Positions 22,645 through 38,939 are shown, numbered from the stretch's first letter. The stretch: 64,000 nucleotides of DNA from Anaerolineae bacterium (GCA_049975205.1 JBNGDL010000007.1:36952-100951); one strand, 5' to 3'. Notes: generated by a model not told the origin, from the sequence alone. A program made the numbers and translations.

Positions 22645-24243
22645 GTGGCGACGGAACGACCTGCGTCTCGTCTGCATCCGCTGTCTGCCGGCACCCTCCA
22701 TGAGCATTATCAGATACTGGAGGGATGGGAGCTGGCGGAATCGGCCTACTATGATGCGGTAGACCTCATCTGCACGCAATCTGAGTGCGGAACGCGTCAT
22801 GGCTCCGTACCAGGAGATGGGCTTTGCCTTCGCTGCCGGACACCCCTTGAGACGGTGCTGATCCACGAACGGGGTCCTATTCCGGGAGATCCGCTTTCCG
22901 CTGAGAAAATCGACCTGCTGTTGCGGCTGGGACAGGCGGGCCACCCGCATGTGCTTACCCAACGTGAAATTCTCTCGTCGCCGCGAGCTACTTGGGCTGT
23001 TGGGGTGCACCCGGGTCACTGGGGTGTCCTGGTTCGCGGGCGTCGTCCCCGGAGCTCGGAGGACGCTGTGGGCATCGTGGCCCAGGTGGCTAAGGCCATG
23101 ACCTATTTGCACCAGCAAGGCCTGGCCTTGGCGGGGCCAGAGCCCTCAGATTGGGAGGCGACGGTAGAGAAGGTGATCACGCTTGGGGGCGCGGGTGCTG
23201 TGAAGCTGGCTGACCTGAGTGGATGCACCGTGCTGCGCGGGGCGTCGCGATCACAGCAGATCGCCGGTGACGTAGCTTTCCTGGGCCGCCTGTTGTTGTA
23301 CCTGACATCAGATGTGGAAGGCATACCCTCACATCCCTCGCTGGCAGCCCCTGCGCTGTGCCCCTACGTCGCGCAGGCTCTGCAGGGGGCGTATGCTACC
23401 CCAATGGCCCTTTTGAACGATCTCACCTCGACGCCGGCACCGGCTTTGACGGCGCGACCGCTGACCCCGAACCACGGTCAGGCCTCAGATCCGGGCCGGA
23501 AGCACAGCCACAACGAGGATGCTGTCGTCACCTTTACCTACAACAAGGAGCTTCAGGGGCGCTCCGTGCCCATCGGCTTCTACTTGGTGGCGGACGGCAT
23601 GGGAGGCCATGCGGCCGGCGACGTTGCGAGCCGGACGGTCAACGAGATTGTGACAGAGTGGGTCCTGAGGACGAAGGTCTTGCCAGACCTTGCGGGCAGG
23701 ACACGCCTGCTGGGCAGCGACGGTCCGGCGGAGGAGCTGCTGACACAAGCGGTCAAGGCCGCAAACGCGGCCCTGGTTCGACAGGCCAAGGCTTCAGGGA
23801 GCGATCTGGGATCGACGGTGACCGCCGCGTTGATCCTCGGCAACTGCGCTACGATCGTGAATGTGGGTGACAGCCGCACCTACCTACTGCGCGATGGGGT
23901 TCTGAAGCAGATTACCGAGGACCATTCTCTCGTTGCCAGGCTGGTCGATGCGCAGATCATAGAGCCCGATCAAGTGCGCAGCCATCCCCAGCGCAACCAG
24001 ATCTATCGAAGCCTAGGCCATCACGAGGAAGTCGCGGTTGACACCTTCGACCTTGTCCTCCGGCGCCACGATCGCCTGATTCTCTGTTCTGACGGATTGT
24101 GGGAGATGGTCCCGGACGCGCGGATTCAGCAGATCGTTGAGGAGTCCCGAAGCCCACAGCAGGCCTGCTATGCCCTCGTCGCGACAGCCAATGAGGCCGG
24201 TGGCGATGACAACATCTCGGTGGTTATTGTGGCTATGGAGTAG
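22645..24243 (+). CDS. Zinc-ribbon pseudokinase fused to PP2C-family Ser/Thr phosphatase
   Basis: ORF opens at 22594 (GTG). The GTG at 22645 has AAGGTG 7 nt upstream. The N-terminal kinase-like fold lacks a G-loop and has a CxxxC...CxxC insert (CTQSEC...CLRC). The catalytic loop is replaced by LALAGPEPSDW. The C-terminal PP2C is intact: GRKHSHNEDAVV, ADGMGGHAAGDVAS, VGDSRTYLL, CSDGLWEMV, GGDDNISVVIV. Confidence 0.75.
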   Translation: MATERPASRLHPLSAGTLHEHYQILEGWELAESAYYDAVDLICTQSECGTRHGSVPGDGLCLRCRTPLETVLIHERGPIPGDPLSAEKIDLLLRLGQAGHPHVLTQREILSSPRATWAVGVHPGHWGVLVRGRRPRSSEDAVGIVAQVAKAMTYLHQQGLALAGPEPSDWEATVEKVITLGGAGAVKLADLSGCTVLRGASRSQQIAGDVAFLGRLLLYLTSDVEGIPSHPSLAAPALCPYVAQALQGAYATPMALLNDLTSTPAPALTARPLTPNHGQASDPGRKHSHNEDAVVTFTYNKELQGRSVPIGFYLVADGMGGHAAGDVASRTVNEIVTEWVLRTKVLPDLAGRTRLLGSDGPAEELLTQAVKAANAALVRQAKASGSDLGSTVTAALILGNCATIVNVGDSRTYLLRDGVLKQITEDHSLVARLVDAQIIEPDQVRSHPQRNQIYRSLGHHEEVAVDTFDLVLRRHDRLILCSDGLWEMVPDARIQQIVEESRSPQQACYALVATANEAGGDDNISVVIVAME

Positions 24244-24330
24244 GGGCGGAGGTTGCGCACCGCGGCGTAAGGCGATGCGGCGCCCATGGAAGATCGTGAC
24301 CAGGTAGTCTAGGGGGAGGAGGGGCGGCCC

Positions 24331-26208
24331 ATGCTGCAACCTAATACGCAACTTCAAAACCGGTATCTCATCCGCCGTCGCATTGGGGGAGGCGGGATGG
24401 GGACTGTGTACATCGCCGAAGACATGCGGCTACAGGGACGTCAGTGTGCCGTGAAGGAGATGTCACCTAGCGCCCTTGCGCCACAGGATCGAGAGTGGTC
24501 CATCGAGGCCTTCCGGCAGGAGGCTCAGATGCTCGCCCAGCTTCGCCATCCCGGCTTGACCGCCGTGACCGACTTCTTTGGGGAGGGTGGCAACTGGTAC
24601 CTCGTCATGGATTACGTCGAGGGCAAGACGCTGGCCACGAAGCTCTCGGAGGCACCAGAGGGGCGTTTCCCGGTCCAGGAGGCTCTGCGCATCGTTCGAC
24701 AGCTCTGTGACGTCCTCGAGTATCTTCACAACCAGCCATCACAGGTCATATTCCGCGATCTGAAGCCTGGGAATGTCATGGTCACCGCTGAGGGCCAGGT
24801 GAAGCTGATCGACTTCGGCATCGCGCGCTTCTTTAAGCCGGGCAAACAAGCCGACACCGCGCTACTCGGAACGCCGGGATATGCTGCGCCGGAGCAATAT
24901 GGTGGTCTGGGTCAGAGTGGGCCACAGACGGATATCTACAGCCTCGGCGTGCTCCTGTGTCACATGGTGACAGGCTTTGATCCCGTCAGTGCCATGAGTC
25001 CGTTCCCTATCCCTGACCCGACCTCGTTGATGCCGGGTATACCCCCGCGCATTGCCGCCACTATCGTTCGAGCGACCCAGTTGCGCCCGGAGCTCCGGTA
25101 TCGTAGTATCGCCGAGATGCGCGACGACCTCTTCCCACCCTCGTTCGTTCCCTATAAACCGCCTACGGAACGCCAGAGGACGCAGGTCATGCAGCCTTCC
25201 GCGCCGAGTGAGGCCGGTTCTGATCGGAAGCGGTTGCGGATGGCGCTGCTAGCGGGAGGGGCAGGTATCGCGTTGCTCGGCATCTGTGTTGGCCTTGGGG
25301 TGTTCGTCGTCTGGCCTTATCTCAGGCCCGACGCGACGGTCACGCCGACCGTGACGCCGACCCAAGCCGCTGCCACAGCCACATTCGAGGCCACGGCCAC
25401 GGTGGGTGCCACCGCCTCAGAGGAGTCGGTAACGCCAACAGAAACGCCGGCTGAGGTCGACACGGATACACCGCCGCCTCCCGTGGTAAAGGTTGATCAG
25501 GATAGCCTTGGGCTCTCGGTTCAGGGGAGGGCGCTGGCCGTCACCACGATCGGCTACGAGGACGGCGCCGACATTGTCGTGGTCGGGAGCATTCAGGGGG
25601 ATCAAGCTGGCACGCGAGACTTGGTCCAGGCACTGATCGACCACTACCGCTCGAATGAGGGCGACATACCGATGGGTGTAATGTACCACTTCGTGCCTTC
25701 CATCAACCCTGATGGCCTTACCTTGAACTCCCGCTACAACGCGCGCGACGTAGACCTCAACCGCAATTGGGGCTCTAGTGATTGGCTGCGCGACGCCGCC
25801 GTGCCGGGATACCCTGAGGGGAAGCCCGACGCGGGAGGCGCGGCACCCTTCTCGGAGCCCGAGACCCAGGCGCTGAGGGACTATCTGCTCTCTCTAAGGT
25901 CGTCTTCCGATAGGCTGCGCGTGATGATCCTACACTCCTCAGTGCGTCGTGACAAAGGTGAGGTCTATCCGGGCGGAGCCACGGCGCTGGACGCAGCACA
26001 GTCCTACGCCAACGTGACCGGCTATGACGTCGAGTATGCCTGGGCGGAGTATGTGACCTCCGGCGAGGCTGTGACCTGGTGTGAGGAGCAGTCTATCGTG
26101 TCCATTGATGTCGTCATTCCCGGATCGCAGACGCCGAGCACGAAGGTCATTGGAGATCGGACGCTGCTGCAGATCACGCTTGATGCCGTCAGGACCCTCG
26201 GTCAGTAA
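24331..26208 (+). CDS. Ser/Thr protein kinase - TM - extracellular M14 carboxypeptidase-like domain (zinc ligands substituted)
   Basis: 625 aa. Kinase motifs GGGGMGTVYIAED, CAVKEM, FRDLKPGNVMV, IDFGIARFF, GTPGYAAPEQ. One TM (LLAGGAGIALLGICVGLGVFVVW), then a T/P-rich linker. M14 blocks are VVVGSIQGDQAGT (in place of HxxE), SINPDGL, DVDLNRNWG and FSEPETQAL. Confidence 0.8.
   Translation: MLQPNTQLQNRYLIRRRIGGGGMGTVYIAEDMRLQGRQCAVKEMSPSALAPQDREWSIEAFRQEAQMLAQLRHPGLTAVTDFFGEGGNWYLVMDYVEGKTLATKLSEAPEGRFPVQEALRIVRQLCDVLEYLHNQPSQVIFRDLKPGNVMVTAEGQVKLIDFGIARFFKPGKQADTALLGTPGYAAPEQYGGLGQSGPQTDIYSLGVLLCHMVTGFDPVSAMSPFPIPDPTSLMPGIPPRIAATIVRATQLRPELRYRSIAEMRDDLFPPSFVPYKPPTERQRTQVMQPSAPSEAGSDRKRLRMALLAGGAGIALLGICVGLGVFVVWPYLRPDATVTPTVTPTQAAATATFEATATVGATASEESVTPTETPAEVDTDTPPPPVVKVDQDSLGLSVQGRALAVTTIGYEDGADIVVVGSIQGDQAGTRDLVQALIDHYRSNEGDIPMGVMYHFVPSINPDGLTLNSRYNARDVDLNRNWGSSDWLRDAAVPGYPEGKPDAGGAAPFSEPETQALRDYLLSLRSSSDRLRVMILHSSVRRDKGEVYPGGATALDAAQSYANVTGYDVEYAWAEYVTSGEAVTWCEEQSIVSIDVVIPGSQTPSTKVIGDRTLLQITLDAVRTLGQ
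25330..25482 (+). repeat. Low-complexity Thr/Pro/Ala-rich extracellular linker-coding tract (kinase)
   Basis: Encodes DATVTPTVTPTQAAATATFEATATVGATASEESVTPTETPAEVDTDTPPPP, between the TM helix and the M14-like domain. Confidence 0.6.
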
Positions 26209-26219
26209 GGAGCGAGTCT

Positions 26220-27092
26220 ATGCGATGCCCTAACTGCGGCCAAGAGAACCGCGTGGGAGCGAGGTTCTGCGGGCGGTGCGGTCAGCCCCTATCGACTAAG
26301 CCGCCTCTGGAACTCACGGAGGCTGCTTCTCGTTGCCCAGTCTGCAACAGCATCCTCAAACCGGATGCGCGCTTCTGCCCGCAGTGCGGCACCGCTATCT
26401 CCGCTCCTCGAGATGGGGTTCCAGCGCCGACGCCGCCGGCCCACACCGTGAGGGCCGGTGAGAGAGCTCTGCCGACGGTCACGCCCGCACCAGCGATCGT
26501 GAGCCCTCAAGCTGCGCCCGAGGCCAGTCGGGTGGAGGAACAGTCACGAGCTCGCGTGCGGCGCCGCCCTGCCTGGCTCGTCGGGGTCGTGATGGCGCTG
26601 CTCTCAGGGGCTGTGTTTTTCTGCCTCGTGATGGGGCTCGCTCTTCTGCCAGCCTTTGGGAGGTCGGTGCCGCCGTCGCCGGAGGTCGATCCCTCGCAAG
26701 CCGATTTGACGATCCTGGTGAGGGAGGCGTACATCAGCGATATGCTCGCCCAGGCGCTGCCGGAGGGGGTACAGGGGGATGCTGTTGTGGATGTGCAGCC
26801 CGGAAACAAGCTCGTCACGACGATCGGCTTCGATCTCCTGTTCATCGACCTTGAGGTGATTGTCCACGCCGGGATCGGGGTTGAGGGTGGTGAGATCCAG
26901 GTCTGGGTGGACCGCGTGGAGACCGGCGGACACGACATCCTTGAACTGCTCAACGTTAATCAGGTCGATCTCGGGCAGAACATCACAGGCGCGATCCAAC
27001 AGGGACTCGAAGATGAACTGGGCCCAGGTTCGCGGTTGCTGACGATTGTCACAGACGACACCAACGTGATCCTGACGGCGCGATGGGAGTAG
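26220..27092 (+). CDS. Double zinc-ribbon - TM - extracytoplasmic domain protein
   Basis: 290 aa, AAGGAG RBS. MRCPNCGQENRVGARFCGRCG and CPVCNSILKPDARFCPQCG. Pro-rich linker, TM (WLVGVVMALLSGAVFFCLVMGLALL) and an ecto-domain of about 150 aa, possibly DUF2993/LmeA-like (weak). Confidence 0.6.
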   Translation: MRCPNCGQENRVGARFCGRCGQPLSTKPPLELTEAASRCPVCNSILKPDARFCPQCGTAISAPRDGVPAPTPPAHTVRAGERALPTVTPAPAIVSPQAAPEASRVEEQSRARVRRRPAWLVGVVMALLSGAVFFCLVMGLALLPAFGRSVPPSPEVDPSQADLTILVREAYISDMLAQALPEGVQGDAVVDVQPGNKLVTTIGFDLLFIDLEVIVHAGIGVEGGEIQVWVDRVETGGHDILELLNVNQVDLGQNITGAIQQGLEDELGPGSRLLTIVTDDTNVILTARWE

Positions 27093-27098
27093 ACGGCG

Positions 27099-27680
27099 AT
27101 GACGCAGATTAGGGGTGGAGGACTGCTTCGGAATCGGTGGTTTGTGGCGTTGGTTGGGGCGGTCCTGGGGTTCTTCGTCGGCGTCGCCCTGGCGGCTGGT
27201 GTTCTGCTGCTGCTGCATGGCGACCCAGAGTCCTTACCAGGCACGTCGCCCGCAGCGGTCTACGATATTCAGGCCGTGGTTGAGGAGCGCTATATCAACC
27301 GCATCATGGTTCAGAGCGCCAACGAGATGGCGGGCCCAGTTTCCCTCTCGGCGGGCAAGATGGACATTCGACCGGGCGGGGTAGCTGACTTCGTCGTGCG
27401 CATTGATGTTGGTCCGCTTCAGCCAGTCTTCGAGGGTAGGGTAGGGTTTAGGGCCACGGAAGACGGTAGCAGCATCGAGGTAGTGCTGCTGGATGCCCGA
27501 TTCGGGAGGCTGCAGCTGAACCGGCTCGTGCCCGATGGCGTGTTGGACGACATCAACGCAGACATCAAGCGGCTCTTGGTCGACAAGATTGGGTCGCAGG
27601 GTCTCTACGTCCTGGACGTGCAGAGTGATGAGACAACGCTCATTCTCCATCTGGGCAGGGAGCCACAGGCTATCCCTTGA
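27099..27680 (+). CDS. Single-pass membrane protein, ecto-domain distantly paralogous to that of the preceding gene
   Basis: 193 aa. N-terminal TM (WFVALVGAVLGFFVGVALAAGVLLLL). The following domain repeats the pattern of the upstream ecto-domain (EERYINRIM... vs REAYISDML...; C-terminal ...TTLILHLG vs ...TNVILTARW). Confidence 0.5.
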   Translation: MTQIRGGGLLRNRWFVALVGAVLGFFVGVALAAGVLLLLHGDPESLPGTSPAAVYDIQAVVEERYINRIMVQSANEMAGPVSLSAGKMDIRPGGVADFVVRIDVGPLQPVFEGRVGFRATEDGSSIEVVLLDARFGRLQLNRLVPDGVLDDINADIKRLLVDKIGSQGLYVLDVQSDETTLILHLGREPQAIP

Positions 27681-27717
27681 CGGGACAAGGTTTTGACAGG
27701 AATGAGGAACGACCGTC

Positions 27718-30528
27718 ATGATTCGCTGTGAGCAGTGCGGCGCACTGAATCGCTCCGAGGCGCATTACTGCACGAAGTGCGGATCAGCGCTGGGGGCTGT
27801 GGCACCGGCTGATCCGCCCTCACTGTGTCCTCACTGCGGGGTCCCGCTGCGCCCAGAATCGCGTTTCTGCCCTGCCTGCGGTCGAACCGTCGCAGGCGTG
27901 ACGGTGGCCCAGGATGGGAGTATCCACGAGCAGAAGATCGTTGTTCGTTGGCCTGGCGGCGAGTCCGAGGAGCACGCTCTCGACAAGTCGGTGGTACACA
28001 TCGGGCGGGCACCGGACAACGACATCGTCCTCAACTTCCCCACGGTCTCGGGACACCATCTCGCACTTGACGTCACGCCAAGTGACGTGAGGGTCACGGA
28101 CCTCAACAGCACGAACGGGACGATGCTGAAAGGACGCTTGATCACACCCCGTTCTCCGCATCCTTGGAGAGAGGGCGAGACCCTGCGTGTGGGCGATGTC
28201 TGGGGTAACTCCATCAGCATTGTGCTGAAGGGCGCGGCGGCCCCGGCTCTCCATACCTATCCGCTGGGTATGCACCGCCTCGCGCAGCACGCCCGCATCC
28301 TGATTGGGCGCGATCCGGCGAGCCAGATCACGCTTGATCATCCCACGGTCTCGCGCCGCCACGCCGAGATCGTGCGACAGGAGGGCGGGCACGCCATCCG
28401 CGATCTGGGCAGCGTCAATGGCACCTTTGTGAACGGGCAGCGGGTCCTAGATGTCGTCCGGCTGCAGGAGGGCGACGTCATCCAGTTGGGACCGTACAAG
28501 ATGGTCTACGACGGGGACGCTGACCGGCTCTCGACCTCGGTGAGCCAGGGCCACCGATTGGATGCGATCGGGCTCGGCGTAGAGGTCGGTGGTGGTCGCA
28601 TGATCCTGCAGGACGTCTCGCTCTCCGTACAGGGAGGCGAGTTCGCGGCGCTGGTCGGCGGCAGCGGTGCGGGCAAGAGCACGCTCCTCAAGGCGATGAA
28701 CGGCTTCCGACCCGCGACCCACGGTCGGATGCTGATCGATGGGGAGCTGCTTTATCCAAATCTGGCGGCCTATCGGACCTTGATGGGCTATGTGCCACAG
28801 GATGACATCATCCACAAGACGCTGCCGGTGCGGAGCGCGCTGTGGTACTCGGCGCGGCTACGTCTGCCTGATGCGACGTCGGCCGAGATCGAGGAGCGGA
28901 TCGACCGTGTCCTCGAGTTGGTGGAGCTGACAGCGCACCAGCACAAGCCGGTTCGGGTGCTGAGCGGCGGGCAACGCAAGCGCGTCAGCATCGCGGTGGA
29001 GCTCCTGGCAGATCCCGATCTCCTCTTCCTGGACGAGCCGACCTCCGGATTGGATCCCGGGCTCGAGAAGAAGATGATGTACGATCTCAACCGGCTGGCC
29101 GATCAAGGACGGACGGTGGTGCTGGTCACGCACGCCACCGCGAACATCGAGCAATGCGATCACGTCGGCTTCTTGGAGCGAGGGAACCTCGCCTACTACG
29201 GCCCTCCCAATGAGGCTATCGCCTTCTTCAAGGCAAGAGACTTTGCTGATATCTACCTGAAGCTGTCAGAACCGGTCGACGGTTTCAGAGGAGCTCTTCC
29301 CTCGGAACTGAGGCCCTATTGGGACGCGATTCAGGCGCGACTACCCGAGGAGGCAAGAGGTCAATCGCCTGGGGTCTGTACTGCAGGGCTTCTCTGGGCG
29401 CAACACTACCGCGCAAGCGACCTTCACCAACGTTACGTCGTGAACAGGCAGGCGCGCTTGGACGCAGCTCGGCCTGGGATGGAAGCGGCGCCTGCGCGCC
29501 GCAAGCGGACTCGAGACTCGGTTCTGCGTCAGCTTGTTGTGCTTGTCCGGCGCCAGTTCGATCTGATCCGTCACGACCTGCGCACGCTGTTCATCCTGCT
29601 TTTGATGATGCCGCTCATTGCCGTTTTGTTTATGCTGGTAAGTGACAAGACGGCGTTCGTCGGGGGCGCGGCGACGGAGGCAAGTCTCAAACAGGAGCTT
29701 CTGCAGGCCCTCAATGTGACTCGGGAGGATGATCTGTCCTCCGTGGTGCTCGACGGGGAGGATCTGGAGCGATCTGCCGACTACATGCCCTACGCCGATG
29801 CGAAGACGCTGGTCACCATGCTCGGGCTTGCCTTGACGCAGGCGGGCACCTTCGGGGCCGCCTATGAGATAGTAAAAGAACGCCCGATCTTCCGTCGCGA
29901 ACGGTCCGTCAACCTCCGGGTGGGGGCGTACGTATTGTCCAAGGCTTTGGTGCTCGGCGTCTTTGCGGTCATCCAGGTAGCCAGCGTGCTCGGTGTGCTG
30001 GCGCTGAAGCTGGATCTGGGCATCGATCCTATTCTGGATATCTTTGCCTTCGGCGCCGCGGAGCTCTTCGTGACACTGCTTATCGCGGTTGTCGCCAGCA
30101 TTATGTTCGGCTTGTTCATCTCGGCCGTTGTGCCTAGCCAGGACGTGGTGCTCTACATCATCCTGATCCAGCTCTTTACCCAGATTATCCTCTCGGGCAC
30201 ACTCTTCCCACTGGGGGACAATCCGGCGTCCAAGCTCGTGCCGTCTTACTGGACGATGGATGCGATGGGTGCTACCGTGGACCTGCGGAAGTTGAACGAC
30301 GAGGGCCGGGTCTGCAAGATATGGGAACAGAAGGATGTTCCCACGGCGGAGGGCACGCGGATGACGCAACGGGGGATCGTGTGCGAGACGGCGGCGATCA
30401 AGAACCTAGACCTGCCCTGGAAGCACGACGCGGAGCATCTCTTGACAGCGTGGGGCGCCCTCGGTGCACAGGCCCTGGTTTGGATGGCTGCTACCATGGT
30501 GGTGCAATCGAGAGTCAAAGGCGACTAG
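27718..30528 (+). CDS. ZnR-ZnR-FHA-FHA-ABC ATPase-ABC2 permease fusion (Rv1747-like FHA-regulated ABC exporter)
   Basis: 936 aa. Zn ribbons CEQCGALNRSEAHYCTKCG and CPHCGVPLRPESRFCPACG. FHA1 is VVHIGRAPDNDIVLNFPTVSGHHLAL...NSTNGT. FHA2 is ILIGRDPASQITLDHPTVSRRHAEI...GSVNGT. Walker A GGSGAGKST, signature LSGGQRKR, Walker B LLFLDEPTSGLD. Multi-TM ABC-2-type C-terminal half. Confidence 0.85.
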   Translation: MIRCEQCGALNRSEAHYCTKCGSALGAVAPADPPSLCPHCGVPLRPESRFCPACGRTVAGVTVAQDGSIHEQKIVVRWPGGESEEHALDKSVVHIGRAPDNDIVLNFPTVSGHHLALDVTPSDVRVTDLNSTNGTMLKGRLITPRSPHPWREGETLRVGDVWGNSISIVLKGAAAPALHTYPLGMHRLAQHARILIGRDPASQITLDHPTVSRRHAEIVRQEGGHAIRDLGSVNGTFVNGQRVLDVVRLQEGDVIQLGPYKMVYDGDADRLSTSVSQGHRLDAIGLGVEVGGGRMILQDVSLSVQGGEFAALVGGSGAGKSTLLKAMNGFRPATHGRMLIDGELLYPNLAAYRTLMGYVPQDDIIHKTLPVRSALWYSARLRLPDATSAEIEERIDRVLELVELTAHQHKPVRVLSGGQRKRVSIAVELLADPDLLFLDEPTSGLDPGLEKKMMYDLNRLADQGRTVVLVTHATANIEQCDHVGFLERGNLAYYGPPNEAIAFFKARDFADIYLKLSEPVDGFRGALPSELRPYWDAIQARLPEEARGQSPGVCTAGLLWAQHYRASDLHQRYVVNRQARLDAARPGMEAAPARRKRTRDSVLRQLVVLVRRQFDLIRHDLRTLFILLLMMPLIAVLFMLVSDKTAFVGGAATEASLKQELLQALNVTREDDLSSVVLDGEDLERSADYMPYADAKTLVTMLGLALTQAGTFGAAYEIVKERPIFRRERSVNLRVGAYVLSKALVLGVFAVIQVASVLGVLALKLDLGIDPILDIFAFGAAELFVTLLIAVVASIMFGLFISAVVPSQDVVLYIILIQLFTQIILSGTLFPLGDNPASKLVPSYWTMDAMGATVDLRKLNDEGRVCKIWEQKDVPTAEGTRMTQRGIVCETAAIKNLDLPWKHDAEHLLTAWGALGAQALVWMAATMVVQSRVKGD

Positions 30529-30553
30529 GGACAGACGCAACGGGAGAAATCGG

Positions 30554-31189: not shown

Positions 31190-31209
31190 GCTGTGCTGAG
31201 GAGGAGGCG

Positions 31210-31305: not shown

Positions 31306-31614
31306 GCCAGTCCCCCCCGACGCCGGTCAGCGGATTCGGGAAGATATGGTGCACAGAATCGAATTCCGTCAGGGCCTGGGGGACGCAACCGAGGTCGAAC
31401 ACGGCTTTGGGGCGACTCTCCAGATCTTTGAGCAAGGGGCCGTGTTTCGTACGGACACCGGCACGACCTACGTTCTTCGCGACAACGGTACCCGGATAAG
31501 TCGGCAATGTCAGGGCTCGGTCTGGACCAGGTTGCAGCGGTATTGGGCTTGGTGGGAAGTGGTTGTTCTTTTCATCTGAGTATTGAGGGTTGTGCATAGC
31601 CAGAGGCTGAAGAT

Positions 31615-33969
31615 ATGCGTGGACAACGACGACGGCTGATTAGGACATTGTTGGTCAGTGGCGGGATTCTATTGGTTCTTGGCATCCTTGTAGGGGTCGC
31701 GCTGCTCACGAATGCGTTTTCGTGGTCTTCCGAGCGGACGCGCCGGGAGCTTCTGGCCGATGGCCCTGGAATCGAGCTGACACCGCCGATAGCGATCGAC
31801 GACCTCGCGGAGGCTTATCCTCAACTGGCTTCCGTGCTGAGTGACCCGGAACTGGCGACGGTGTACAAGGAGTTCGTGGTGGCGTATCAGGAGGGCGGGG
31901 TCGAGGCTGCTTCCGAGCTGGCGAAGAGCCGGGGCTTACTCACCCCCGATGGGCAGCATCTGCGCGTGACGCTTGTCCTCGACACTGACGCGCCACAGCC
32001 GCTCGTTGATCAGTTGGAAGGTGTTGGTGTGGAGGTGGTCAGTGCATTTCGTGATCGTGTCAATATCGCCGTGCCGGTCGCCCTGATCGAGCAGGCGATG
32101 CAATCGGAGGATGTCGATAGCGTCTTCCAGCAACTCACCGAGCTTCAGCACGTGATCGCAGTGCGTTTGCCAGGTCAACGGCAGTCCGACCAGCAGACGG
32201 AGCAGGGCGAGGGGGTCCGCGCGGTTGGCGCGGAAGTTTGGCACCAGGCAGGTTTCACCGGTGCTGGGCTGCGGGTCGGCATACTCGATTTGGGTTTTGC
32301 AGGGTACCGACGCCTCCTGGGGCGTGAGCTTCCTGACAATGTCGAGGTGGAGACTTTCGGATGGATTGACGACAAGGAGGTCCACGGGACTGCCTGTGCC
32401 GAGATTGTGCACGAGCTCGCGCCCGATGCGACCCTATATCTCGCCTGGTATGATGGCAGTGATGCCGCAATGGGGGAGGCTGTCGCATGGCTGCGAGGTC
32501 ATGAAGTCGACATCATCAGCCATTCAGCCGGGAGCGTGCTCAGCCCGCGAGATGGCACGGGTTGGGACGCAGAGTTGGTTGATGAAACTGCCGCGACGGG
32601 TGTGCTTTGGGTAAACTCTGCGGGCAATGAAGCAGATGTCCATCACCGGGCGACCTTCATCGATCAGGACGGTGATGGCTATCATGATTTTGAACTCGAC
32701 ACGTCGCTCCTTCCAATCTACAACGAGGGGGATCTGCGCGTCTTTCTTGTCTGGCACGAAGATTGGGAACGGCCCACCGAGGATCTTGAGCTGTTTGTTT
32801 TCGATGCCGACGGCAACGTGCTGGCCTCCTCTGAAGATCTGCAGGATGGGGGCTTGGGACAGCAACCCGCCGAATGGGTGGTTATGCAGTCCTCGGCGTC
32901 GGTGGTCTATGCTGCCGTCTACGCCTATGATGTCGATCGCGCGATGGGCTTTGATCTTTTTGCGATCGGTCCCGGGGTCGAGATCAAGGACCCGGTCCCG
33001 GCCTATAGCGTAAACTCCCCTGGTGACGCCGTTGGGGCTTTGACCGTCGGGGCAGTGGACTGGGAGGATGACCGCCTCGCCCGCTACAGCTCTCAGGGGC
33101 CGACTACTGACGAGCGCCTGAAGCCCGAGATCTCGGGTCCGACGAGGATTTCGGGCATTACCTATGGGGCCCACGGCTTTGATGGAACGTCGGCGTCGGC
33201 GCCGCACGTGGCCGGTGTGGCTGCACTGGTGTGGCAAGCTTACCCGAGCTACACGCGACAGGAGCTGACCGATCTGCTTCTGACGTCGGCCAAGGATCTG
33301 GGACCGGCCGGGCCTGACACCGGTTACGGGTTTGGACGCCTGCAGCTGCCCCCGCCGCCCAATGCTGCGGCGGTCATCGCCAGCCCCGAAGCGCCCGCCG
33401 ACGAAGCCACTGAGACGCCGACCACAGACGTCACGCCAACGCCGGTCGCCTTTGCATTACCTGCTCCTGAGAATGACACGGATGACCGGCGGCAGAGGCC
33501 TCTCGTCTTAGTGGGGCTTCTCGTGGGAGGCCTGAGCATTGGGGGCACGGGGCTCCTTGCCATCGGCGGCTACCTTCTTCTGAGCGAACTAAGGACCCGG
33601 TCGACGCCATCATCAGAGCCGCCGAGGCCTGCTCCGCCTTTGGCAGTGGCGCCGGCGCGGCCGATGCGGCCTTCAGAGAGGCCCGCCGAGGGGCCCTCGC
33701 TGCCATCCACAGAGCGATGGGAGACAGACCAGGGCGACTTGAGGACGCCGGATGCTCATTCTGCCAAGCGGCCGACATCCAAGTCAGAATCTGAGACACA
33801 CTGTCCTTCCTGCGGGGCTCCGTTGCGATCGGGGGCTCGGTTCTGCCCCGGGTGTGGCACGCGTCTGGCGATCGCTTCGAATCCGGCTTTCTGCCGTCAC
33901 TGTGGTGCCGCGTTGCGAGAGGACAGCCGGTTCTGCCCGAAGTGCGGCCTGCCGGTCGATCGGCGCTGA
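31615..33969 (+). CDS. Membrane-anchored subtilisin-like (S8) serine protease with N-terminal pro-like domain, second TM and cytoplasmic double zinc-ribbon tail
   Basis: 784 aa. N-terminal TM (LLVSGGILLVLGILVGVALL). Catalytic triad contexts VGILDLGF (Asp), HGTACAEIV (His), GTSASAPHVAG (Ser), with oxyanion NSAGNE. TM2 is LVLVGLLVGGLSIGGTGLLAIGGYLLL. Tail motifs CPSCGAPLRSGARFCPGCG and CRHCGAALREDSRFCPKCG. Confidence 0.85.
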   Translation: MRGQRRRLIRTLLVSGGILLVLGILVGVALLTNAFSWSSERTRRELLADGPGIELTPPIAIDDLAEAYPQLASVLSDPELATVYKEFVVAYQEGGVEAASELAKSRGLLTPDGQHLRVTLVLDTDAPQPLVDQLEGVGVEVVSAFRDRVNIAVPVALIEQAMQSEDVDSVFQQLTELQHVIAVRLPGQRQSDQQTEQGEGVRAVGAEVWHQAGFTGAGLRVGILDLGFAGYRRLLGRELPDNVEVETFGWIDDKEVHGTACAEIVHELAPDATLYLAWYDGSDAAMGEAVAWLRGHEVDIISHSAGSVLSPRDGTGWDAELVDETAATGVLWVNSAGNEADVHHRATFIDQDGDGYHDFELDTSLLPIYNEGDLRVFLVWHEDWERPTEDLELFVFDADGNVLASSEDLQDGGLGQQPAEWVVMQSSASVVYAAVYAYDVDRAMGFDLFAIGPGVEIKDPVPAYSVNSPGDAVGALTVGAVDWEDDRLARYSSQGPTTDERLKPEISGPTRISGITYGAHGFDGTSASAPHVAGVAALVWQAYPSYTRQELTDLLLTSAKDLGPAGPDTGYGFGRLQLPPPPNAAAVIASPEAPADEATETPTTDVTPTPVAFALPAPENDTDDRRQRPLVLVGLLVGGLSIGGTGLLAIGGYLLLSELRTRSTPSSEPPRPAPPLAVAPARPMRPSERPAEGPSLPSTERWETDQGDLRTPDAHSAKRPTSKSESETHCPSCGAPLRSGARFCPGCGTRLAIASNPAFCRHCGAALREDSRFCPKCGLPVDRR

Positions 33970-34011
33970 TGTGATCCTCAGGGAGTCTTCGGGACGGTAA
34001 GCCTGAAGGAT

Positions 34012-34040
34012 TTGTGCTTTGCTGAGATCGATACTATCGT
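34012..34040 (+). promoter_or_regulatory. Candidate internal promoter upstream of the second pseudokinase-PP2C gene
   Basis: TTGTGC (34012-34017), 17 bp, TATCGT (34035-34040), in a locally GC-poorer 170-bp gap. Confidence 0.25.
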
Positions 34041-34138
34041 AGGTGGGTAACATGGTCTGCAAGGGGGATCCTTGGAACAGGTAACGGGCAACGGGTTCTT
34101 CGTTTCGCTTTCTCAGCGCAACCTTACATATCCCTTTT

Positions 34139-35887
34139 TTGGTGCTCTTGGGGCTCTTGTTTGTCTTGACCACCGTCGTCTTGGCAAGGCGACTTCGCAG
34201 ACGACGTGTCTCTTCGAAGACGACGCCGGAGGCAACCTCTGCAGCCGCGACACGCCAGGGTGGGGGGACCAAGCAGCTAGCGGGGACGCCTGAAGCGTCG
34301 CATCCCGATCTAAGCGGCGGCTTTTCAGCACTGGCTGAAGGTACTGTGCTTAACAACCGCTACGTGATACGTGAGGTCCGTGGATCAAGCGGCAGCCACG
34401 CGGTCTACCTGGCTGAGGATCTCTACCCGGTCAAGATGTGTCCGGCATGCCGTGGCGTGGCATCAGACGCGGATGAGATTCGGTGCACATATTGTGGGGC
34501 CGATCTGTCCGAGATCTCCCCAGCTCAGCTCAGGTATCTCGTGCAGGAGCGGGACGATCCTGCGGCGTTCAGCTCTGAAGGCCAGTTACTCCAGCTTGAC
34601 CTGAGGCATCCGGGCCTGTTGCTGCCGGTTGCGGTCTTCGTGGAAGCTCCTCACGGTCCCAAGCGGGCTTATCGTGTTATGCCCGAGTTCTCCCCGCCGC
34701 TTGTGAAGACCGTGCCCGGTCCACGTGACTTGGCCCAGACGCTCTCGTGGGGTGTCTCGTTGGCGAAGGCTCTCGCTTATCTGCATCAGCACGATGTTGC
34801 CCTTGGTTCTGTGGATATCGACCACGTCTCGGTTGATGGCGACAGAGCATGGTGGTCGGGGCTGACCCGCGTCACGATCTTGTCCGCTGAGGAGCGTGCC
34901 TCTATCCGTGAGGCGCACGCCGTCGATGTGCAGAAGCTGGCGACCTTGTTGGTACAGCTGGGGACAGGAAGGGCTAACGCGGCTCTGCCCGAGAGCTGGC
35001 CTGATGCTCTGAACCAGTTGATCACCAAGGCACACCGTGAGCCTGCGAAGGTGAGCGCTGCGGAGTTTGCTGTTATGCTGGAGCACCTGTTGGAACAAGT
35101 GCGGGAGCCTAAGCGCGTGACGCTGGTGGTCGGGCAGTGCACGGATGTGGGTTCCATTCGCTCTGTCAATGAGGATACTCTTCTCTCGGTCGACCTCGGG
35201 GCGATCCATCGCCTGCGAGATCAGGCGGCGGGGCTTTTTCTCGTCGCCGATGGTATGGGTGGGCACGACGCAGGGGATGTGGCCAGCCAGTTGACGGCTC
35301 GGACAATTGGGGAGCTGACAACAGAGGAAGGGACCCGCCCCATTTCCTCCCGTCAGCTGTTCTCCGACCCGGCAGGGTGGCTGTTGACTGCGGTCCGGCA
35401 GGCCAACCAGGCGGTATATGAGGAGCGGATGGCTGCGAAATCTGACATGGGCACGACGCTCGTCGCGGCGCTCGTGATGGGTGCGCGGGCGACAATTGCT
35501 AACGTGGGAGACAGCCGCTGTTATCTGCTCAGCAACCGTGGCATCACCCAGGTCACGGTGGACCACTCGCTGGTGGAGCGGCTGGTGGCGACTGGTCAGA
35601 TCACGCGTGAGGAGGCGGCTGTGCATCCTCAGCGTCACGTCATCTACCGCGTGATCGGCGATAGGCCGGAGGTGGAGATCGATCTCTTCGAGCAACCGAT
35701 GCAGGTCGACGAAGCGTTGTTGCTCTGCTCCGACGGGTTGAGCGGCATGGTGTCTGACGAGACGATCTGGCGGATCTGGATGGCTGCAGCCTCTCCCCAA
35801 GATGCTTGCATCCGCTTGGTCGCGGCTGCGAATAGGGCCGGCGGCGAGGATAACATCACCGCCGTGATCGTTCAAGTGCGGACCTGA
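34139..35887 (+). CDS. Zinc-ribbon pseudokinase fused to PP2C phosphatase (paralog of 22645-24243), possible N-terminal membrane anchor
   Basis: 582 aa from a TTG at 34139; alternative starts are GTG 34142 and GTG 34346. Kinase-like LNNRYVIREV..AVYLAED, insert MCPACRG...RCTYCG, alphaC-like EGQLLQLDLRHPGL. The catalytic loop is replaced by ALGSVDIDHV and there is no DFG. The PP2C is intact: SIRSVNEDTLL, ADGMGGHDAGDVAS, VGDSRCYLL, CSDGLSGMV, GGEDNITAVIV. Confidence 0.75.
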   Translation: MVLLGLLFVLTTVVLARRLRRRRVSSKTTPEATSAAATRQGGGTKQLAGTPEASHPDLSGGFSALAEGTVLNNRYVIREVRGSSGSHAVYLAEDLYPVKMCPACRGVASDADEIRCTYCGADLSEISPAQLRYLVQERDDPAAFSSEGQLLQLDLRHPGLLLPVAVFVEAPHGPKRAYRVMPEFSPPLVKTVPGPRDLAQTLSWGVSLAKALAYLHQHDVALGSVDIDHVSVDGDRAWWSGLTRVTILSAEERASIREAHAVDVQKLATLLVQLGTGRANAALPESWPDALNQLITKAHREPAKVSAAEFAVMLEHLLEQVREPKRVTLVVGQCTDVGSIRSVNEDTLLSVDLGAIHRLRDQAAGLFLVADGMGGHDAGDVASQLTARTIGELTTEEGTRPISSRQLFSDPAGWLLTAVRQANQAVYEERMAAKSDMGTTLVAALVMGARATIANVGDSRCYLLSNRGITQVTVDHSLVERLVATGQITREEAAVHPQRHVIYRVIGDRPEVEIDLFEQPMQVDEALLLCSDGLSGMVSDETIWRIWMAAASPQDACIRLVAAANRAGGEDNITAVIVQVRT

Positions 35888-35930
35888 CCGCCGGTGCTGA
35901 ATCAAGACAGAAGACATGGAGGCAGTTGAG

Positions 35931-37913
35931 ATGCGCATACGGCGTGTGCTGTCGACCTTCATCTGTCTCGCATCCCTGCTGTCGGCGATGCCGACGGCAG
36001 CACAGGAGGGCGTGCCCGAGCCTCCGGTCGTGGACATCCTTGGGACGCCGGATACCCGCTCCCAGCCCCCAAACGCTCATCTCTATGTGTCCGTCGTAGA
36101 CCGGCTCACAGGCCGTGCGTTTCTCGATCTGGAGCCAGCGAATTTCGCGGCCCAGGTCTCTGAGGTAGACGTTGAGACCGCAGTCGAGATAGACACGACC
36201 GGACTGGCTGTGGTCATGGTGATCGACCGTGGCGGGATAGCCCAGCGGGGTGATCCCAGGATCGGTCGGAGCGTTGACCTTGCATCCGCGTTGCTCGAGA
36301 TGCTGACGGTGGACGGGACTGCCACGGCGGATATGGTGGCGCTCATCGGCATCCGCGGCGAGGAACAAGGCGGACTCACGCCAGTCATCAACTTCACAGA
36401 CTACGATCCGAACGTAATCAGCAACGCCTTTGATGGGCTGCGTACAGAGGTTGTGAACGAAACGACGCCCCTTTATGACGGGCTCGACAGAGCGATAGCG
36501 TGGATCACCGATAACCCCGATCCTCAGATACGCGAGAAACTGGTACATCGACGGCGGATCATCCTGGTCTTCTCCGACGGGATAGATCGGGACTTCAGTG
36601 ACGAGTCCCACGAGACTCTGATCGTCAATCAAGCTGCGGAGAACGATATCCTCATCTATGCTGTCCAAATGAGTGACCGGGGTCGGACGGGTGATTCCAT
36701 AAGCCTAAGTGCCATGGCCACACAGACTCAGGGAGCGCTGTTCGTGCACAGTCCGGAGAGTCACGAGGAGGTCCTCGCCCGTCTGCAGGATATCACGACC
36801 CAACGGGAGGCCTACCGCCTGACCTTTCCTCTGATCCGGCCTCAAGGCCTGTACCAGGTGGAGATTCAGGTGCTTGATACGCCAGGTGGGTCAGCTTCGG
36901 ATGCTGAGAGCATCACGTCTCACCTGGAGAGGCCAGGTATCGCGTGGGTCGCACCTCCGGAGCTTCAGATTGTCGTGCCCTATTCCGAGACAGCGCTGGG
37001 GTTCCTGCCCACATCGATCCCGTTGAGCGTCCAGATGAGTTTCAAGGATGGCGCTTCGCGAGAGCCGGAGCAGGTCTCGTACTTCGCGAACGAGCAGCGC
37101 ATTGGTCTTACAAGTGCCGGTCCGGACTACGCTTTTGAATGGGACGTCGCGGATCTCGAGACGCCGGCGACCGAGCCGGTCACGCGAACCTTCACCCTGA
37201 TTGCTCGCGCGACCGATCCCTATCTCGAGGAGCCTATTGCGACGGAGCCGCTGGACATCCAGATTACGTGGGAGCAGAAAGAGGAGACGCTGAAGACGGT
37301 CACAGAGGATGTCGCCAGCAGCGTGGCGCTGAACTGGTGGGTCCTCCCACTCTTCGGCGTGCTGGCAGTGGGTATTGTCGTGCTCGCCGTGCTGCTGATT
37401 CGGACCCGAGGTCAGGTGGCGAAGCAGGTCGTGAAGGGTACCACGGCTGTCGTGAGAGGGGTCACACAACGGTTAGGCGCTGGCGGTGGGTTGCCCGCTG
37501 CACGGGGGAAGCTTGTCGTGACGCGAGGACCTCGCACGGGGACTGAGTTCCGTCTGGCAACGAGCTTGGTGCGGGTCGGGCGAGATCCTGAGTACAGCGA
37601 CTTCGCACTGCACGACCAATACGTGTCCAACCCTCACTTCTCCGTGATCGAGGAGGGAGGGCAGTTCTATATCCGGGATGAGGAGAGTACCAACCAGACC
37701 CGTCTTAATGGCGCAGTCGTCCCTGCGAATCAGCGGATCGTTCTGCCCCCGGATGCCGTCATCGATGCAGGCCAGACGCGTCTCCAGTTTCGTCGGTTGG
37801 GTGGCGAGACGCGGCTCATCAGCGCTCGCGCACAGAAGACGGAGCGAGGCAGCTCGGGGCAAGACGAGGCCAATGCGCCAACGCAGCGAGCAGGCCCAGG
37901 TTTCCGCCCGTAG
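35931..37913 (+). CDS. Secreted vWA-like domain - TM - cytoplasmic FHA domain protein
   Basis: ATG at 35931 has GGAGG 8 nt upstream; the ORF opens at 35916. Signal peptide MRIRRVLSTFICLASLLSAMPTAAQ. vWA-like strands VVMVIDRGGIA (MIDAS DxSxS not conserved) and IILVFSDGIDRDF. TM is WWVLPLFGVLAVGIVVLAVLLI. FHA is LVRVGRDPEYSDFALHDQYVSNPHFSV...ESTNQTRLNG. Confidence 0.75.
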   Translation: MRIRRVLSTFICLASLLSAMPTAAQEGVPEPPVVDILGTPDTRSQPPNAHLYVSVVDRLTGRAFLDLEPANFAAQVSEVDVETAVEIDTTGLAVVMVIDRGGIAQRGDPRIGRSVDLASALLEMLTVDGTATADMVALIGIRGEEQGGLTPVINFTDYDPNVISNAFDGLRTEVVNETTPLYDGLDRAIAWITDNPDPQIREKLVHRRRIILVFSDGIDRDFSDESHETLIVNQAAENDILIYAVQMSDRGRTGDSISLSAMATQTQGALFVHSPESHEEVLARLQDITTQREAYRLTFPLIRPQGLYQVEIQVLDTPGGSASDAESITSHLERPGIAWVAPPELQIVVPYSETALGFLPTSIPLSVQMSFKDGASREPEQVSYFANEQRIGLTSAGPDYAFEWDVADLETPATEPVTRTFTLIARATDPYLEEPIATEPLDIQITWEQKEETLKTVTEDVASSVALNWWVLPLFGVLAVGIVVLAVLLIRTRGQVAKQVVKGTTAVVRGVTQRLGAGGGLPAARGKLVVTRGPRTGTEFRLATSLVRVGRDPEYSDFALHDQYVSNPHFSVIEEGGQFYIRDEESTNQTRLNGAVVPANQRIVLPPDAVIDAGQTRLQFRRLGGETRLISARAQKTERGSSGQDEANAPTQRAGPGFRP

Positions 37914-38006
37914 TAGCGAGGATGCCGTAGCCCTGTCGGCGTTGACAAGGATCGCGCCATTTAGGTGTGAAAGGGATCTGCGGTTGAATTCAGAGGAGTT
38001 GATTCT

Positions 38007-38939
38007 ATGCCAATCTGTCCGAATTGTGGAGCACAACAGCCGGAGGGAGCTACCTTCTGCGACGAGTGTGGCGCGGCTTTAAGACGCCCCGCGGTCTCCT
38101 ATCCTGCGCCCTCGTCCAAAGACCAGGGTCGAACCGTTGTAGGCTCCAGCATGGCCGCAGGGCCGCGCCTCTGCCCGGTCTGTGGTGCGCGTAACGCTTC
38201 ACAAGACCCTTTCTGCACGAACTGCGGGGCCTCGCTCAGCGAGGAGCCCGCTCCCGCCCAGCGCGGACCCTGTGCGATGGATGGGGTGACGGTCATAGCA
38301 CCCGCTGGGGCAGGGGGGCGACCGGAGAAGCTCGGTCCTACTCCCGGTGCGGGTTCTGTTCAGGGTGGTTTGGTCTGTGGTCAGTGCGGTGCGTTGCTGG
38401 AGCCCGACAGTGCCTTCTGTGATATGTGTGGGGCGCCGGTGAGTCGTGTGTCGCCGCCCTCCGGTGACGAGACCGCGCTGTCGTCCCCTCCCGCCTCGGA
38501 TCAGGCTCCAGTCTACGAACCGACCGTCGCATCACAGGAGCGGGGATGGCAGGCGTCGGCGGGAGGAGCGCTGCAAGCGCCAACGCCCTCCGACGACGCG
38601 CTACGCCCGAAGCCTCAGGGTGCGCTGGTGGTGCGCGGGAGCAACGTCACGCTCGATCTTGTGTCAGGGACGCTGGTATGGGTGATCGGTCGCGAGGATC
38701 CACTGAGTGGTATCTTCCCGGACATCGATCTTACAGACCACGGGGGGGACGAGGGTGGTGTCTCCCGCAAGCACGCACGGATTCAGGTACAGGGCCAGCG
38801 GTTCTACGTCGAGGACCTGAATAGCACGAACCATACTTACCTGAACCGCGAACTGCTGACGCCGGGATACACCTATCCGCTCCGGGATGGCGATGAGTTG
38901 TGCTTTGGACGCGTGAAAGTGATCTTCAGGTCTTCCTAG
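38007..38939 (+). CDS. Triple zinc-ribbon - FHA domain protein
   Basis: 310 aa, GAGGAG RBS. CPNCGAQQPEGATFCDECG, CPVCGARNASQDPFCTNCG and CGQCGALLEPDSAFCDMCG. C-terminal FHA is VWVIGRED...GGVSRKHARIQV...DLNSTNHTYLN. Confidence 0.8.
   Translation: MPICPNCGAQQPEGATFCDECGAALRRPAVSYPAPSSKDQGRTVVGSSMAAGPRLCPVCGARNASQDPFCTNCGASLSEEPAPAQRGPCAMDGVTVIAPAGAGGRPEKLGPTPGAGSVQGGLVCGQCGALLEPDSAFCDMCGAPVSRVSPPSGDETALSSPPASDQAPVYEPTVASQERGWQASAGGALQAPTPSDDALRPKPQGALVVRGSNVTLDLVSGTLVWVIGREDPLSGIFPDIDLTDHGGDEGGVSRKHARIQVQGQRFYVEDLNSTNHTYLNRELLTPGYTYPLRDGDELCFGRVKVIFRSS

Follow-up and report, generated by a model that had tools for sequence, protein, structure and literature searches.

Serine/threonine signalling in bacteria is usually built from three parts: a kinase, a PP2C phosphatase and an FHA reader. 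Here we describe a gene cluster in which a further element recurs, a small Cys4 zinc ribbon (ZnR) that is found at the ends of four of the encoded proteins and, in divergent form, inside two others. The cluster lies in a stretch of 64,000 nucleotides from an Anaerolineae bacterium (GCA_049975205.1 JBNGDL010000007.1:36952-100951); the window, as we call it, is this whole stretch, and positions are counted from its first letter. Proteins are named by the position at which their gene starts.

The best precedent is archaeal. ArnA of Sulfolobus consists of a Cys4 ribbon (C21, C24, C35, C38), a disordered linker and an FHA domain (PMC12852372, PMC6509490). According to a cocrystal published in 2026, this ribbon docks via its C-terminal hairpin on the vWA protein ArnB, and the resulting "loose" complex is phosphorylation-free (PMC12852372); after the kinase ArnC has phosphorylated ArnB, the FHA domain of ArnA binds and the complex is "tight" (PMC12852372, PMC6509490). 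What the authors found was a protein interface, with no hint of DNA binding (PMC12852372). In bacteria, a comparable system is Rv1747, which combines two FHA domains with an ABC exporter and is regulated by the kinase PknF (PMC3138270, PMC8339232).

As for the ribbon itself, a 2012 paper on the YARHG proteins described a cytoplasmic N-terminal ribbon pair followed by a transmembrane (TM) helix and an extracellular domain, recognized the pair as a module that many unrelated membrane proteins share, and guessed that it binds nucleic acids, its hosts being membrane-tethered transcription factors (PMC3355149). Kaur et al. in 2020 reported that DO-GTPases, and also a kinase associated with genes for PP2C and vWA, carry ZnRs (PMC7159879), and the literature also mentions the domain together with SHOCT. 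Pfam gives no function for the domain, and in none of the papers that our literature search returned is a tested function assigned to its bacterial form; nor did these papers describe its concentration on one signalling cluster or a split into acidic and basic versions.

Ribbons on the proteins of a phospho-signalling cluster

The genes in question are co-directional, lie on the + strand from 22594 to 38939 (Table 1), and form a Chloroflexota envelope-associated Ser/Thr phospho-signalling cluster. Gene architectures were derived from Pfam and hydropathy; for membrane topology, hydropathy was combined with the positive-inside rule. When the 64 kb were scanned in six frames with a relaxed pattern, C-x2-C-x6-14-[FYW]-C-x2-C-G, nine matches came up, all of them in frame in + strand open reading frames (ORFs) between 26226 and 38432. 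These are nine canonical C-x2-C-x10-C-x2-C-G ribbons on four proteins: two on the 26220 protein, two on the FHA-ABC exporter 27718, two at the C-terminus of the S8 protease 31615 and three on the FHA adaptor 38007. Against these nine, the number expected by chance is 0.005 in shuffled DNA and zero in residue-shuffled proteins. Moreover, the four ribbon genes fall within a span of nine genes among the 47 of the window (P = 0.012).

An initial annotation, made from the sequence alone, had proposed that one short ribbon motif is reused on at least six proteins between 22771 and 38440, with related CxxC knuckles in both pseudokinases. The range is exact and the six proteins are there, four with the nine canonical copies and two pseudokinases with one divergent copy each; the pattern as literally given matches only three of the nine, and it takes the relaxed form to find them all. 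That every copy is cytoplasmic agrees with the predicted topology, which runs ribbons, TM helix, extracellular domain in the 26220 protein and TM helix, extracellular domain, TM helix, ribbons in the S8 protein. The Pro-rich linkers that it had placed beside all copies are present in the 26220, S8 and 38007 proteins, and only weakly so in the short linkers of the ABC exporter. Between the basic ribbons and the TM helix, the flexible linker measures 15-100 residues.

The terminal motif is a known domain, Pfam Zn_Ribbon_1 (PF13240), DZR (PF12773) or Zn_ribbon_3 (PF13248), with four Cys in about 22 residues, and is not new; all nine terminal copies exceed the Pfam thresholds. On the four proteins PF13240 scores 47.5-69.1 bits (curated cut-off 25) and PF12773 39.9-60.9 bits (cut-off 27.3). 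Nor is the motif specific to the cluster, the same Pfam families having been described on membrane proteins of many unrelated kinds (PMC3355149). Our alignments show all four Cys to be invariant, and the hairpins are confident in the AlphaFold2 (AF2) model of the adaptor; each ribbon is predicted to bind one zinc ion. PDB searches found no close structure of the ribbon family, with weak matches only to ArnA, DZANK1, eL40 and LysW.

Elsewhere in the window, only two C-x2-C...C-x2-C patterns fall in plausible ORFs, one at 52387-52464 (+), which reads CEDCG...CPEC in a short ORF of 78 aa, and one at 9878-9919 (-); both match the ribbon hidden Markov model (HMM) poorly (<=4.7 bits). A separate observation concerns NCBIfam NF011149 (PRK14559), a curated model of 642 positions named "serine/threonine phosphatase", which was matched via 38007-38939 and via both PP2C proteins. 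Its positions 3-31 align to ribbon 2 of the 38007 protein and it ends in a PP2C domain; it seems, then, that this reference family already covers a ribbon-X-PP2C architecture.

Is the ribbon concentrated on this type of cluster, or simply common? For the comparison, 80 related Chloroflexota loci were gathered via the FHA-ABC exporter, with 10 kb on each side, and their ORFs were labelled by phmmer with the window domains and by the ribbon HMM together with the Cys4 pattern. A Pfam check upheld the ribbon calls in 22 of 23 proteins. In place of a whole-genome census, two proxies were used, namely the unrelated ORFs in the same loci and 0.9 Mb of metagenome contigs. In the window and the 80 loci, ribbons occur on 132 of 276 cluster-type genes (48%), i.e., FHA adaptors, PP2C, FHA-ABC exporters, S8 proteases and kinases, versus 6 of 393 ORFs at least three genes away (1.5%; Fisher p = 8e-53). 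Among unrelated ORFs that lie no more than two genes from one of the cluster type, 24 of 311 carry them, and most of these 24 are further ZnR-ZnR-TM-ecto proteins (with an extracellular domain) inside the same clusters. By class, the share in the 80 related loci is 78% for single-FHA proteins, 70% for PP2C, 64% for S8 (9 of 14 orthologues), 58% for FHA-ABC and 23% for Ser/Thr kinases; among FHA-ABC exporter homologues, 99 of 120 have one or two ribbons.

In the window alone, the ribbon genes are 4 of 11 cluster genes (6 counting the embedded copies) and none of the 36 others, so that the motif is not equally frequent in unrelated proteins at either scale. The metagenome background, taken around LonC-like genes, yielded two marginal cases in 719 genes; being taxonomically unmatched (39-45% identity, G+C content 33-72%), it shows only that the motif is generally rare. 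The ribbon is about 30-fold enriched on cluster genes and not exclusive to the cluster: at a background of about 1.5%, ribbon proteins would still number in the dozens in a Chloroflexota genome.

Acidic, basic and embedded ribbons

The ribbons come in acidic and basic versions, split by host protein, a feature that the initial annotation had not mentioned. Net charge was taken over 24 aligned ribbon positions. In the loci, the ribbons of the soluble ZnR2-3-FHA adaptors have a mean of -1.15, and 94% are at or below zero; Asp or Glu stands right after the third Cys in 81%, the two arginines are missing, and the signature is F-C-[DE]-x-C-G. A basic charge (+1.6 to +2.5) and the signature N-R-x-x-A-[RK]-F-C distinguish the ribbons on the ABC exporter, the S8 protease, the 26220-type proteins, the kinases, the N-termini of PP2C proteins and orphan ZnR-TM-ecto proteins. 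The adaptor is the more acidic in 20 of the 21 loci that hold both kinds. Database homologues repeat the pattern: 357 ribbons of 120 adaptors have a mean of -1.82, with 99% at or below zero and an acidic residue after the third Cys in 305, versus a mean of +2.04 and 2 such residues in 182 ribbons of 99 exporters. For this split p = 3e-81, a figure that, like any from homologous families, overstates the independence of the data. Even so, homologues of 38-100% identity agree in the direction of the charge. Charges in the window are -3, +1 and -3 for the adaptor ribbons and +1 to +3 for the other six terminal ribbons.

A further point is the age of the copies. Most window ribbons are closest to the same-position ribbon of an orthologue in another locus (scores 76-127; for ribbon 1 of the 26220 protein this is the one in locus L001), and pairs inside the window score at most 83. 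Two do not follow this rule, the second ribbons of the 26220 and 38007 proteins, each of which has its top match on another protein. When 262 ribbons are compared, those of the same class and position across loci score 58.8, and different proteins within a locus are no more alike than different classes across loci (47.9 vs 48.0, p = 0.44). Because each ribbon is orthologous by position, the copies are, on this sequence comparison, old and separately maintained fusions without recent copying.

The adaptor 38007 is predicted to be a beads-on-a-string protein. In the AF2 model (monomer, family alignment), the ribbons have predicted local distance difference test (pLDDT) values of 80-92 and the FHA domain 94-98, with linkers below 50. 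All three ribbons keep the C-x2-C-x10-C-x2-C spacing, and the non-Cys surface of each is distinct and 85-97% conserved among 94 homologues that are about 45-55% identical overall. The residues of the FHA domain that bind phosphothreonine (pThr), G228, R229, S253, H256 and N275, are invariant in the family, and Foldseek with the adaptor returned FHA matches only, to the FHA domains of FhaA, GarA, OdhI and ArnA. Inside the otherwise unconserved Ala/Pro linker, a short island keeps its Thr in 82 of the 94 homologues; this T43 island is a candidate phospho-acceptor and FHA ligand, its phosphorylation being putative. No conserved Thr motif follows the ribbons of the ABC exporter in 83 orthologues, and GRTVAG of the window exporter, considered as such a motif, is not conserved among them.

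The public gene call for 38007-38939, P0121, is only 217 aa long and begins at an internal start, with the loss of ribbons 1 and 2. Among the matches listed, three ribbons are present in 118 of 120 adaptor homologues, most of which extend over 99-100% of the 310-aa ORF; the ATG at 38007 is therefore the better start.

In the related loci, the product of the gene beside the adaptor is often a cytoplasmic vWA protein, about 420 aa long, whose C-terminal tail is helical and rich in Thr. We call it ArnB-like on the basis of Pfam VWA, the lack of a TM helix and a PDB match to ArnB (8s05_A, E 1.5e-4). There are 27 such genes in 20 loci, often as two or three paralogues, beside ZnR-FHA adaptors and ZnR-ZnR-TM proteins; one is the immediate neighbour of 10 of 23 adaptors and lies within two genes of 13 of 23.

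The copies inside the two pseudokinases are of a different kind. No Pfam ribbon matches the 22594 or the 34139 protein at E<=0.01, and the four Cys are invariant in 13 of 13 family members in an alignment, A3, of the window and related loci. The N-terminal halves of both proteins are homologous to the active kinases of such clusters (hhalign 98.9%, E 1.7e-17, 223 columns), and A3 shows no conservation in the columns that correspond to K42, R142-D143 and D161-F162-G163 of the active kinases. Since the conserved beta3 Lys, HRD and DFG are lost, both are classed by sequence as pseudokinases, the hhalign and PDB profile results settling the predicted fold. PknG and StkP were the top matches in a PDB search with the family profile, and PknG was the best. 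The embedded ribbon is an acidic insertion between beta2 and beta3 that aligns to the Cys-x-x-Cys-Gly motifs of PknG; it probably represents a separate structural or regulatory use, nearer to the rubredoxin module of PknG than to the terminal copies. Most pseudokinase-PP2C orthologues also have a canonical basic ribbon at the very N-terminus, which both window proteins lack (22594-22700 and 34139-34220). The 34139 ORF, which has a TTG start, opens instead with a hydrophobic stretch followed by RRLRRRR; its true start is uncertain, and the stretch is possibly a membrane anchor.

Table 1. Ribbons, adaptor elements and genes of the cluster, with examples of ArnB-like vWA genes from related loci (last six rows, given by locus and position)
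Feature	Position	Strand	Basis or remark
Ribbon 1 of the 26220 protein, basic (+3), N-terminus	26226..26282	+	PF13240/PF12773
Ribbon 2 of the 26220 protein, basic (+2)	26334..26390	+	followed by Pro-rich linker and TM (aa 120-138)
Ribbon 1 of the FHA-ABC exporter (+1)	27727..27783	+	Pfam
Ribbon 2 of the FHA-ABC exporter (+2)	27826..27882	+	Pfam
Ribbon 1 of the S8 protease (+3), cytoplasmic C-terminal tail after TM2 and Pro-rich linker	33802..33858	+	Pfam, topology
Ribbon 2 of the S8 protease (+2), extreme C-terminus	33892..33948	+	Pfam
Ribbon 1 of the ZnR3-FHA adaptor, acidic (-3)	38016..38072	+	PF13240; AF2 pLDDT ~91
Ribbon 2 of the ZnR3-FHA adaptor (+1 here)	38172..38228	+	acidic in most homologues
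Ribbon 3 of the ZnR3-FHA adaptor, acidic (-3)	38376..38432	+	
Linker island of the adaptor, G-R-T43-V-V-G	38127..38144	+	family consensus P-T-[VA]-x-A
FHA domain of the adaptor, aa 205-310	38619..38936	+	Pfam FHA; AF2 pLDDT 94-98
Divergent Cys4 ribbon CTQSEC...CLRC in the N-lobe of the 22594 protein	22771..22836	+	C-x4-C-x13-C-x2-C
Acidic Cys4 ribbon CPACRGVASDADEIRCTYC in the pseudokinase domain of the 34139 protein	34439..34495	+	C-x2-C-x12-C-x2-C
Pseudokinase-PP2C (predicted)	22594-24243	+	Pfam, hydropathy
Active Ser/Thr kinase, TM, extracellular M14 (MpaA-like) domain	24331-26208	+	without ribbon
Two ribbons, Pro-rich linker, TM (aa 120-138), extracellular domain	26220-27092	+	extracellular domain without Pfam match
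TM and extracellular domain	27099-27680	+	extracellular domain paralogous to that of the 26220 protein
ZnR2-FHA2-ABC-ABC2 exporter: two ribbons, two FHA, ABC ATPase, ABC-2 permease	27718-30528	+	
Lipoprotein	30464/30554-31189	+	
S8 protease: TM, S8 extracellular domain, TM2 (aa 630-648), Pro-rich tail, two ribbons	31615-33969	+	
Second pseudokinase-PP2C (predicted)	34139-35887	+	
Signal peptide, extracellular vWA, TM, cytoplasmic FHA	35916-37913	+	without ribbon
Soluble ZnR3-FHA adaptor: three ribbons, FHA	38007-38939	+	
ArnB-like vWA	L011:4196-5479		
ArnB-like vWA	L036:4092-5357		
ArnB-like vWA	L032:8400-9662		
ArnB-like vWA	L031:2737-3993		
ArnB-like vWA	L037:3987-5228		
ArnB-like vWA	L045:5370-6713		

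Possible docking and the alternatives to it

What, then, might the terminal ribbons do? The reading that we favour, with confidence that is evenly balanced, is that they are phosphorylation-independent protein-docking modules that would assemble the proteins of the cluster; it is favoured because of the enrichment and of the experimental precedent of ArnA. Terminal ribbons on flexible linkers would provide weak, multivalent and phosphorylation-independent tethering between cluster proteins, and FHA-pThr contacts, written by the kinase and erased by PP2C, would add switchable tight binding, a two-site "loose/tight" logic as in archaeal ArnA-ArnB. The acidic three-ribbon FHA adaptor would be the natural hub, and the basic ribbons would mark the membrane effectors and enzymes that it gathers.

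The initial annotation had already spoken of a common docking handle. The enrichment and ArnA speak for the docking half of that proposal, but the handle would not be a uniform one: orthology among the copies follows position, their conserved surfaces differ, the copies fall into acidic and basic classes, and the embedded ones are structurally different. Direct pairing of acidic with basic ribbons is attractive, and speculative. In its fullest form it would be a heterotypic "zinc-ribbon code", in which each acidic ribbon of the adaptor or pseudokinase insert pairs with the basic ribbons of a particular effector or enzyme; the multivalent adaptor would then bring exporter, protease, ecto-domain protein, phosphatase and kinase together close to the membrane, in a cluster that FHA-pThr contacts would lock or release. 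We consider such a code doubtful.

Several observations weigh against docking as the function of the terminal ribbons. The same domain is common on unrelated membrane proteins, such as those with YARHG (PMC3355149), vWA, AIM24 or EcsC, and RNA-binding ribbons, eL40 for one, are among the PDB entries nearest to it in sequence. Across the 262 ribbons, neither homogenization nor co-evolution within loci was seen. In several loci, the ribboned ABC exporter has no signalling neighbours within 10 kb, and ribbon loss on the exporter had no effect on the ribbons of neighbouring genes at the gene level (p = 0.45), the effect at the locus level (p = 0.0045) being confounded by phylogeny and by the presence of the signalling cluster. 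Finally, the 64-kb window contains no ArnB-like cytoplasmic vWA, its own vWA being extracellular, and the one experimentally known type of partner is therefore missing.

An alternative reading of the charge split is that the basic ribbons bind anionic phospholipid head groups, so that cytoplasmic tails and the N-termini of soluble PP2C proteins and kinases would be held at the membrane and the acidic ribbons of the adaptor would keep away from it. It would suit this reading that the hosts of basic ribbons are membrane-anchored effectors or enzymes whose site of action must be the membrane, and that the only consistently acidic terminal ribbons are those of a soluble protein. Nonetheless, proteins with TM helices need no further anchor, their ribbons are 15-100 residues away from the helix, no amphipathic or lipid-binding feature was identified in the ribbons, and the strong position-specific conservation of the acidic ones is left unexplained; we regard membrane-surface binding as unlikely. 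The spread of the domain over unrelated proteins raises another suspicion: perhaps the ribbon is a generic tag, a fast-folding and partnerless cytoplasmic cap that sets the N-in topology of bitopic proteins or protects their termini, and its abundance here merely reflects the many membrane proteins of the cluster. The ZnR-ZnR-TM-ecto architecture is indeed widespread on unrelated extracellular domains (PMC3355149), and the exporters without signalling neighbours fit such a tag. Yet some ribbons belong to soluble proteins, the adaptor and PP2C, and others stand at the C-terminus, as in S8 and some kinases, or within a pseudokinase; the contrast of 48% with 1.5% holds despite the many membrane proteins among the neighbouring genes; and both the conserved surfaces and the charge classes are class-specific. 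A mere cap is, in our judgement, improbable.

Nucleic-acid binding, with the ribbons tethering their hosts to DNA or RNA as membrane-tethered regulators or as contacts to ribosomes or RNA, goes back to the transcription-factor proposal of the YARHG paper (PMC3355149). Most ribbons are basic, and the PDB sequences closest to a single ribbon are those of eL40, bL32 and RNA polymerase subunits. It is difficult to reconcile with adaptor ribbons of which 99% have a net charge of zero or less, with hosts that are a protease, exporter, phosphatases and kinases and not regulators, and with ArnA, where a protein interface was found and no hint of DNA binding (PMC12852372); it is very improbable. Compatible with docking is a redox or zinc switch, in which the Cys4 sites would sense oxidants or zinc and the loss of metal would alter signalling. 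Eleven Cys4 sites lie in this one cluster, and the best PDB match of the pseudokinase family is PknG, whose Cys4 motif aligns to the embedded ribbon. Against this, the cluster holds no redox-related gene and Cys4 ribbons are usually structural, so that we give a switch only a slight chance.

Why would docking matter? If the ribbon is a fourth recurrent wiring module, it would explain how one cluster keeps its specificity among many paralogous kinases, and it would give a function to "zinc-ribbon domain-containing protein", which is among the commonest uncharacterized annotations in Chloroflexota, Actinobacteria and Firmicutes. As docking modules, the ribbons would pre-assemble membrane effectors and regulators ahead of phosphorylation, which is the part played by the ribbon of ArnA in archaea. 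From the acidic/basic split comes a concrete pairing hypothesis, and if the zinc-ribbon code were true, bacterial Ser/Thr signalling would have a third layer of wiring that does not depend on phosphorylation. Should the ribbons be no more than generic caps, the finding would be an ordinary one.

The other genes and the known systems

The remaining genes of the cluster offer points of their own. The 24331-26208 protein is the only active Ser/Thr kinase of the cluster, likely the writer of the system, and its extracellular part resembles M14 carboxypeptidases, with a sub-threshold similarity to the murein tripeptide amidase MpaA. PASTA kinases sense muropeptides, and by analogy this kinase might sense peptidoglycan peptides. 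The 26220 and 27099 proteins have in common a paralogous extracellular domain of about 150 aa (26640-27092 and 27230-27680) with no match in Pfam, NCBIfam or PADLOC, and the gene pair is also kept beside the exporter in L001-L003. The lipoprotein probably starts with MMRRRW at 30554 and has the lipobox LSTGC; the start at 30464 would overlap the end of the ABC gene. Its C-terminal half (within 30554-31189) is paralogous to the N-terminal domain of the S8 protease (31615-32200), and it could be a free pro-domain or inhibitor. The S8 protease itself matches the mycosins of type VII secretion, TIGR03921, below threshold (74 bits, cut-off 279), over aa 442-640, a stretch that reaches the C-terminal TM helix at 630-648.

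One base past the stop codon of the adaptor begins a further gene, 38940-40028, with no Pfam match at 1e-5. By eye, it contains the calcineurin-like metallophosphoesterase motifs GDLHRG, GDAEELWE, GNHDDEW, VHGHQGD and SHTHEP, and its product may be a further phosphoesterase of the operon. PADLOC recognized no defence system in the cluster, only generic kinase, ABC, subtilase and PP2C matches.

How does all of this compare with what is known? The kinase activity of PknG is controlled by its Cys4 rubredoxin module. PknG of M. tuberculosis and Corynebacterium resembles the embedded copies in having a Cys4 metal module (twice C-x-x-C-G) on the N-lobe of a kinase fold; it differs in that its module precedes an active kinase domain, whereas here it is inserted in a dead kinase fused to PP2C. 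GarA and OdhI, which work by an N-terminal phospho-Thr switch, have FHA domains among the closest to that of the adaptor by sequence and fold, and the conserved Thr island in the disordered N-terminal part of the adaptor recalls their self-binding pThr motif. They have no ribbons, and for the adaptor the phosphorylation of T43 is putative.

The effector-associated domains (EADs) and ZnR components of NTP-dependent conflict systems (PMC7159879) likewise spread one small adaptor domain across the proteins of a neighbourhood, but EADs have other folds and a proposed homotypic pairing, and the cluster here is without a MoxR, DO-GTPase or GAP1 core. The exporter is closest to Rv1747/PknF of Mycobacterium tuberculosis, with which it shares two N-terminal FHA domains, a nucleotide-binding domain and ABC-2 in one chain, as well as the presence of a Ser/Thr kinase gene in the gene cluster (PMC3138270, PMC8339232). 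Pfam finds FHA twice, ABC_tran and ABC2_membrane in it, and the kinase gene is 1.5 kb upstream on the same strand. Rv1747 has been described without a zinc ribbon, whereas most Chloroflexota orthologues have two ribbons ahead of the FHA domains.

The comparison that reaches furthest is with ArnA and ArnB, which repress motility in Sulfolobus under the kinases ArnC/D. In the PDB, ArnA (5a8i, 8s05_C) was reached both from the ribbon profile and from the adaptor, and it is the only solved ribbon-plus-FHA protein among the matches. Ribbon spacing, disordered linker, FHA domain and a context of kinase, phosphatase and vWA genes are the same, at a weak sequence similarity (E 3e-5 to 0.03). ArnA has one ribbon and the adaptor here three; in the bacterial system ribbons are also present on the exporter, the protease and the ecto-domain protein, and in relatives on kinases and PP2Cs; and the whole is linked to the membrane. 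By this analogy, the cluster may be the ribbon-plus-FHA logic of ArnA, extended in bacteria to many effectors at the membrane.

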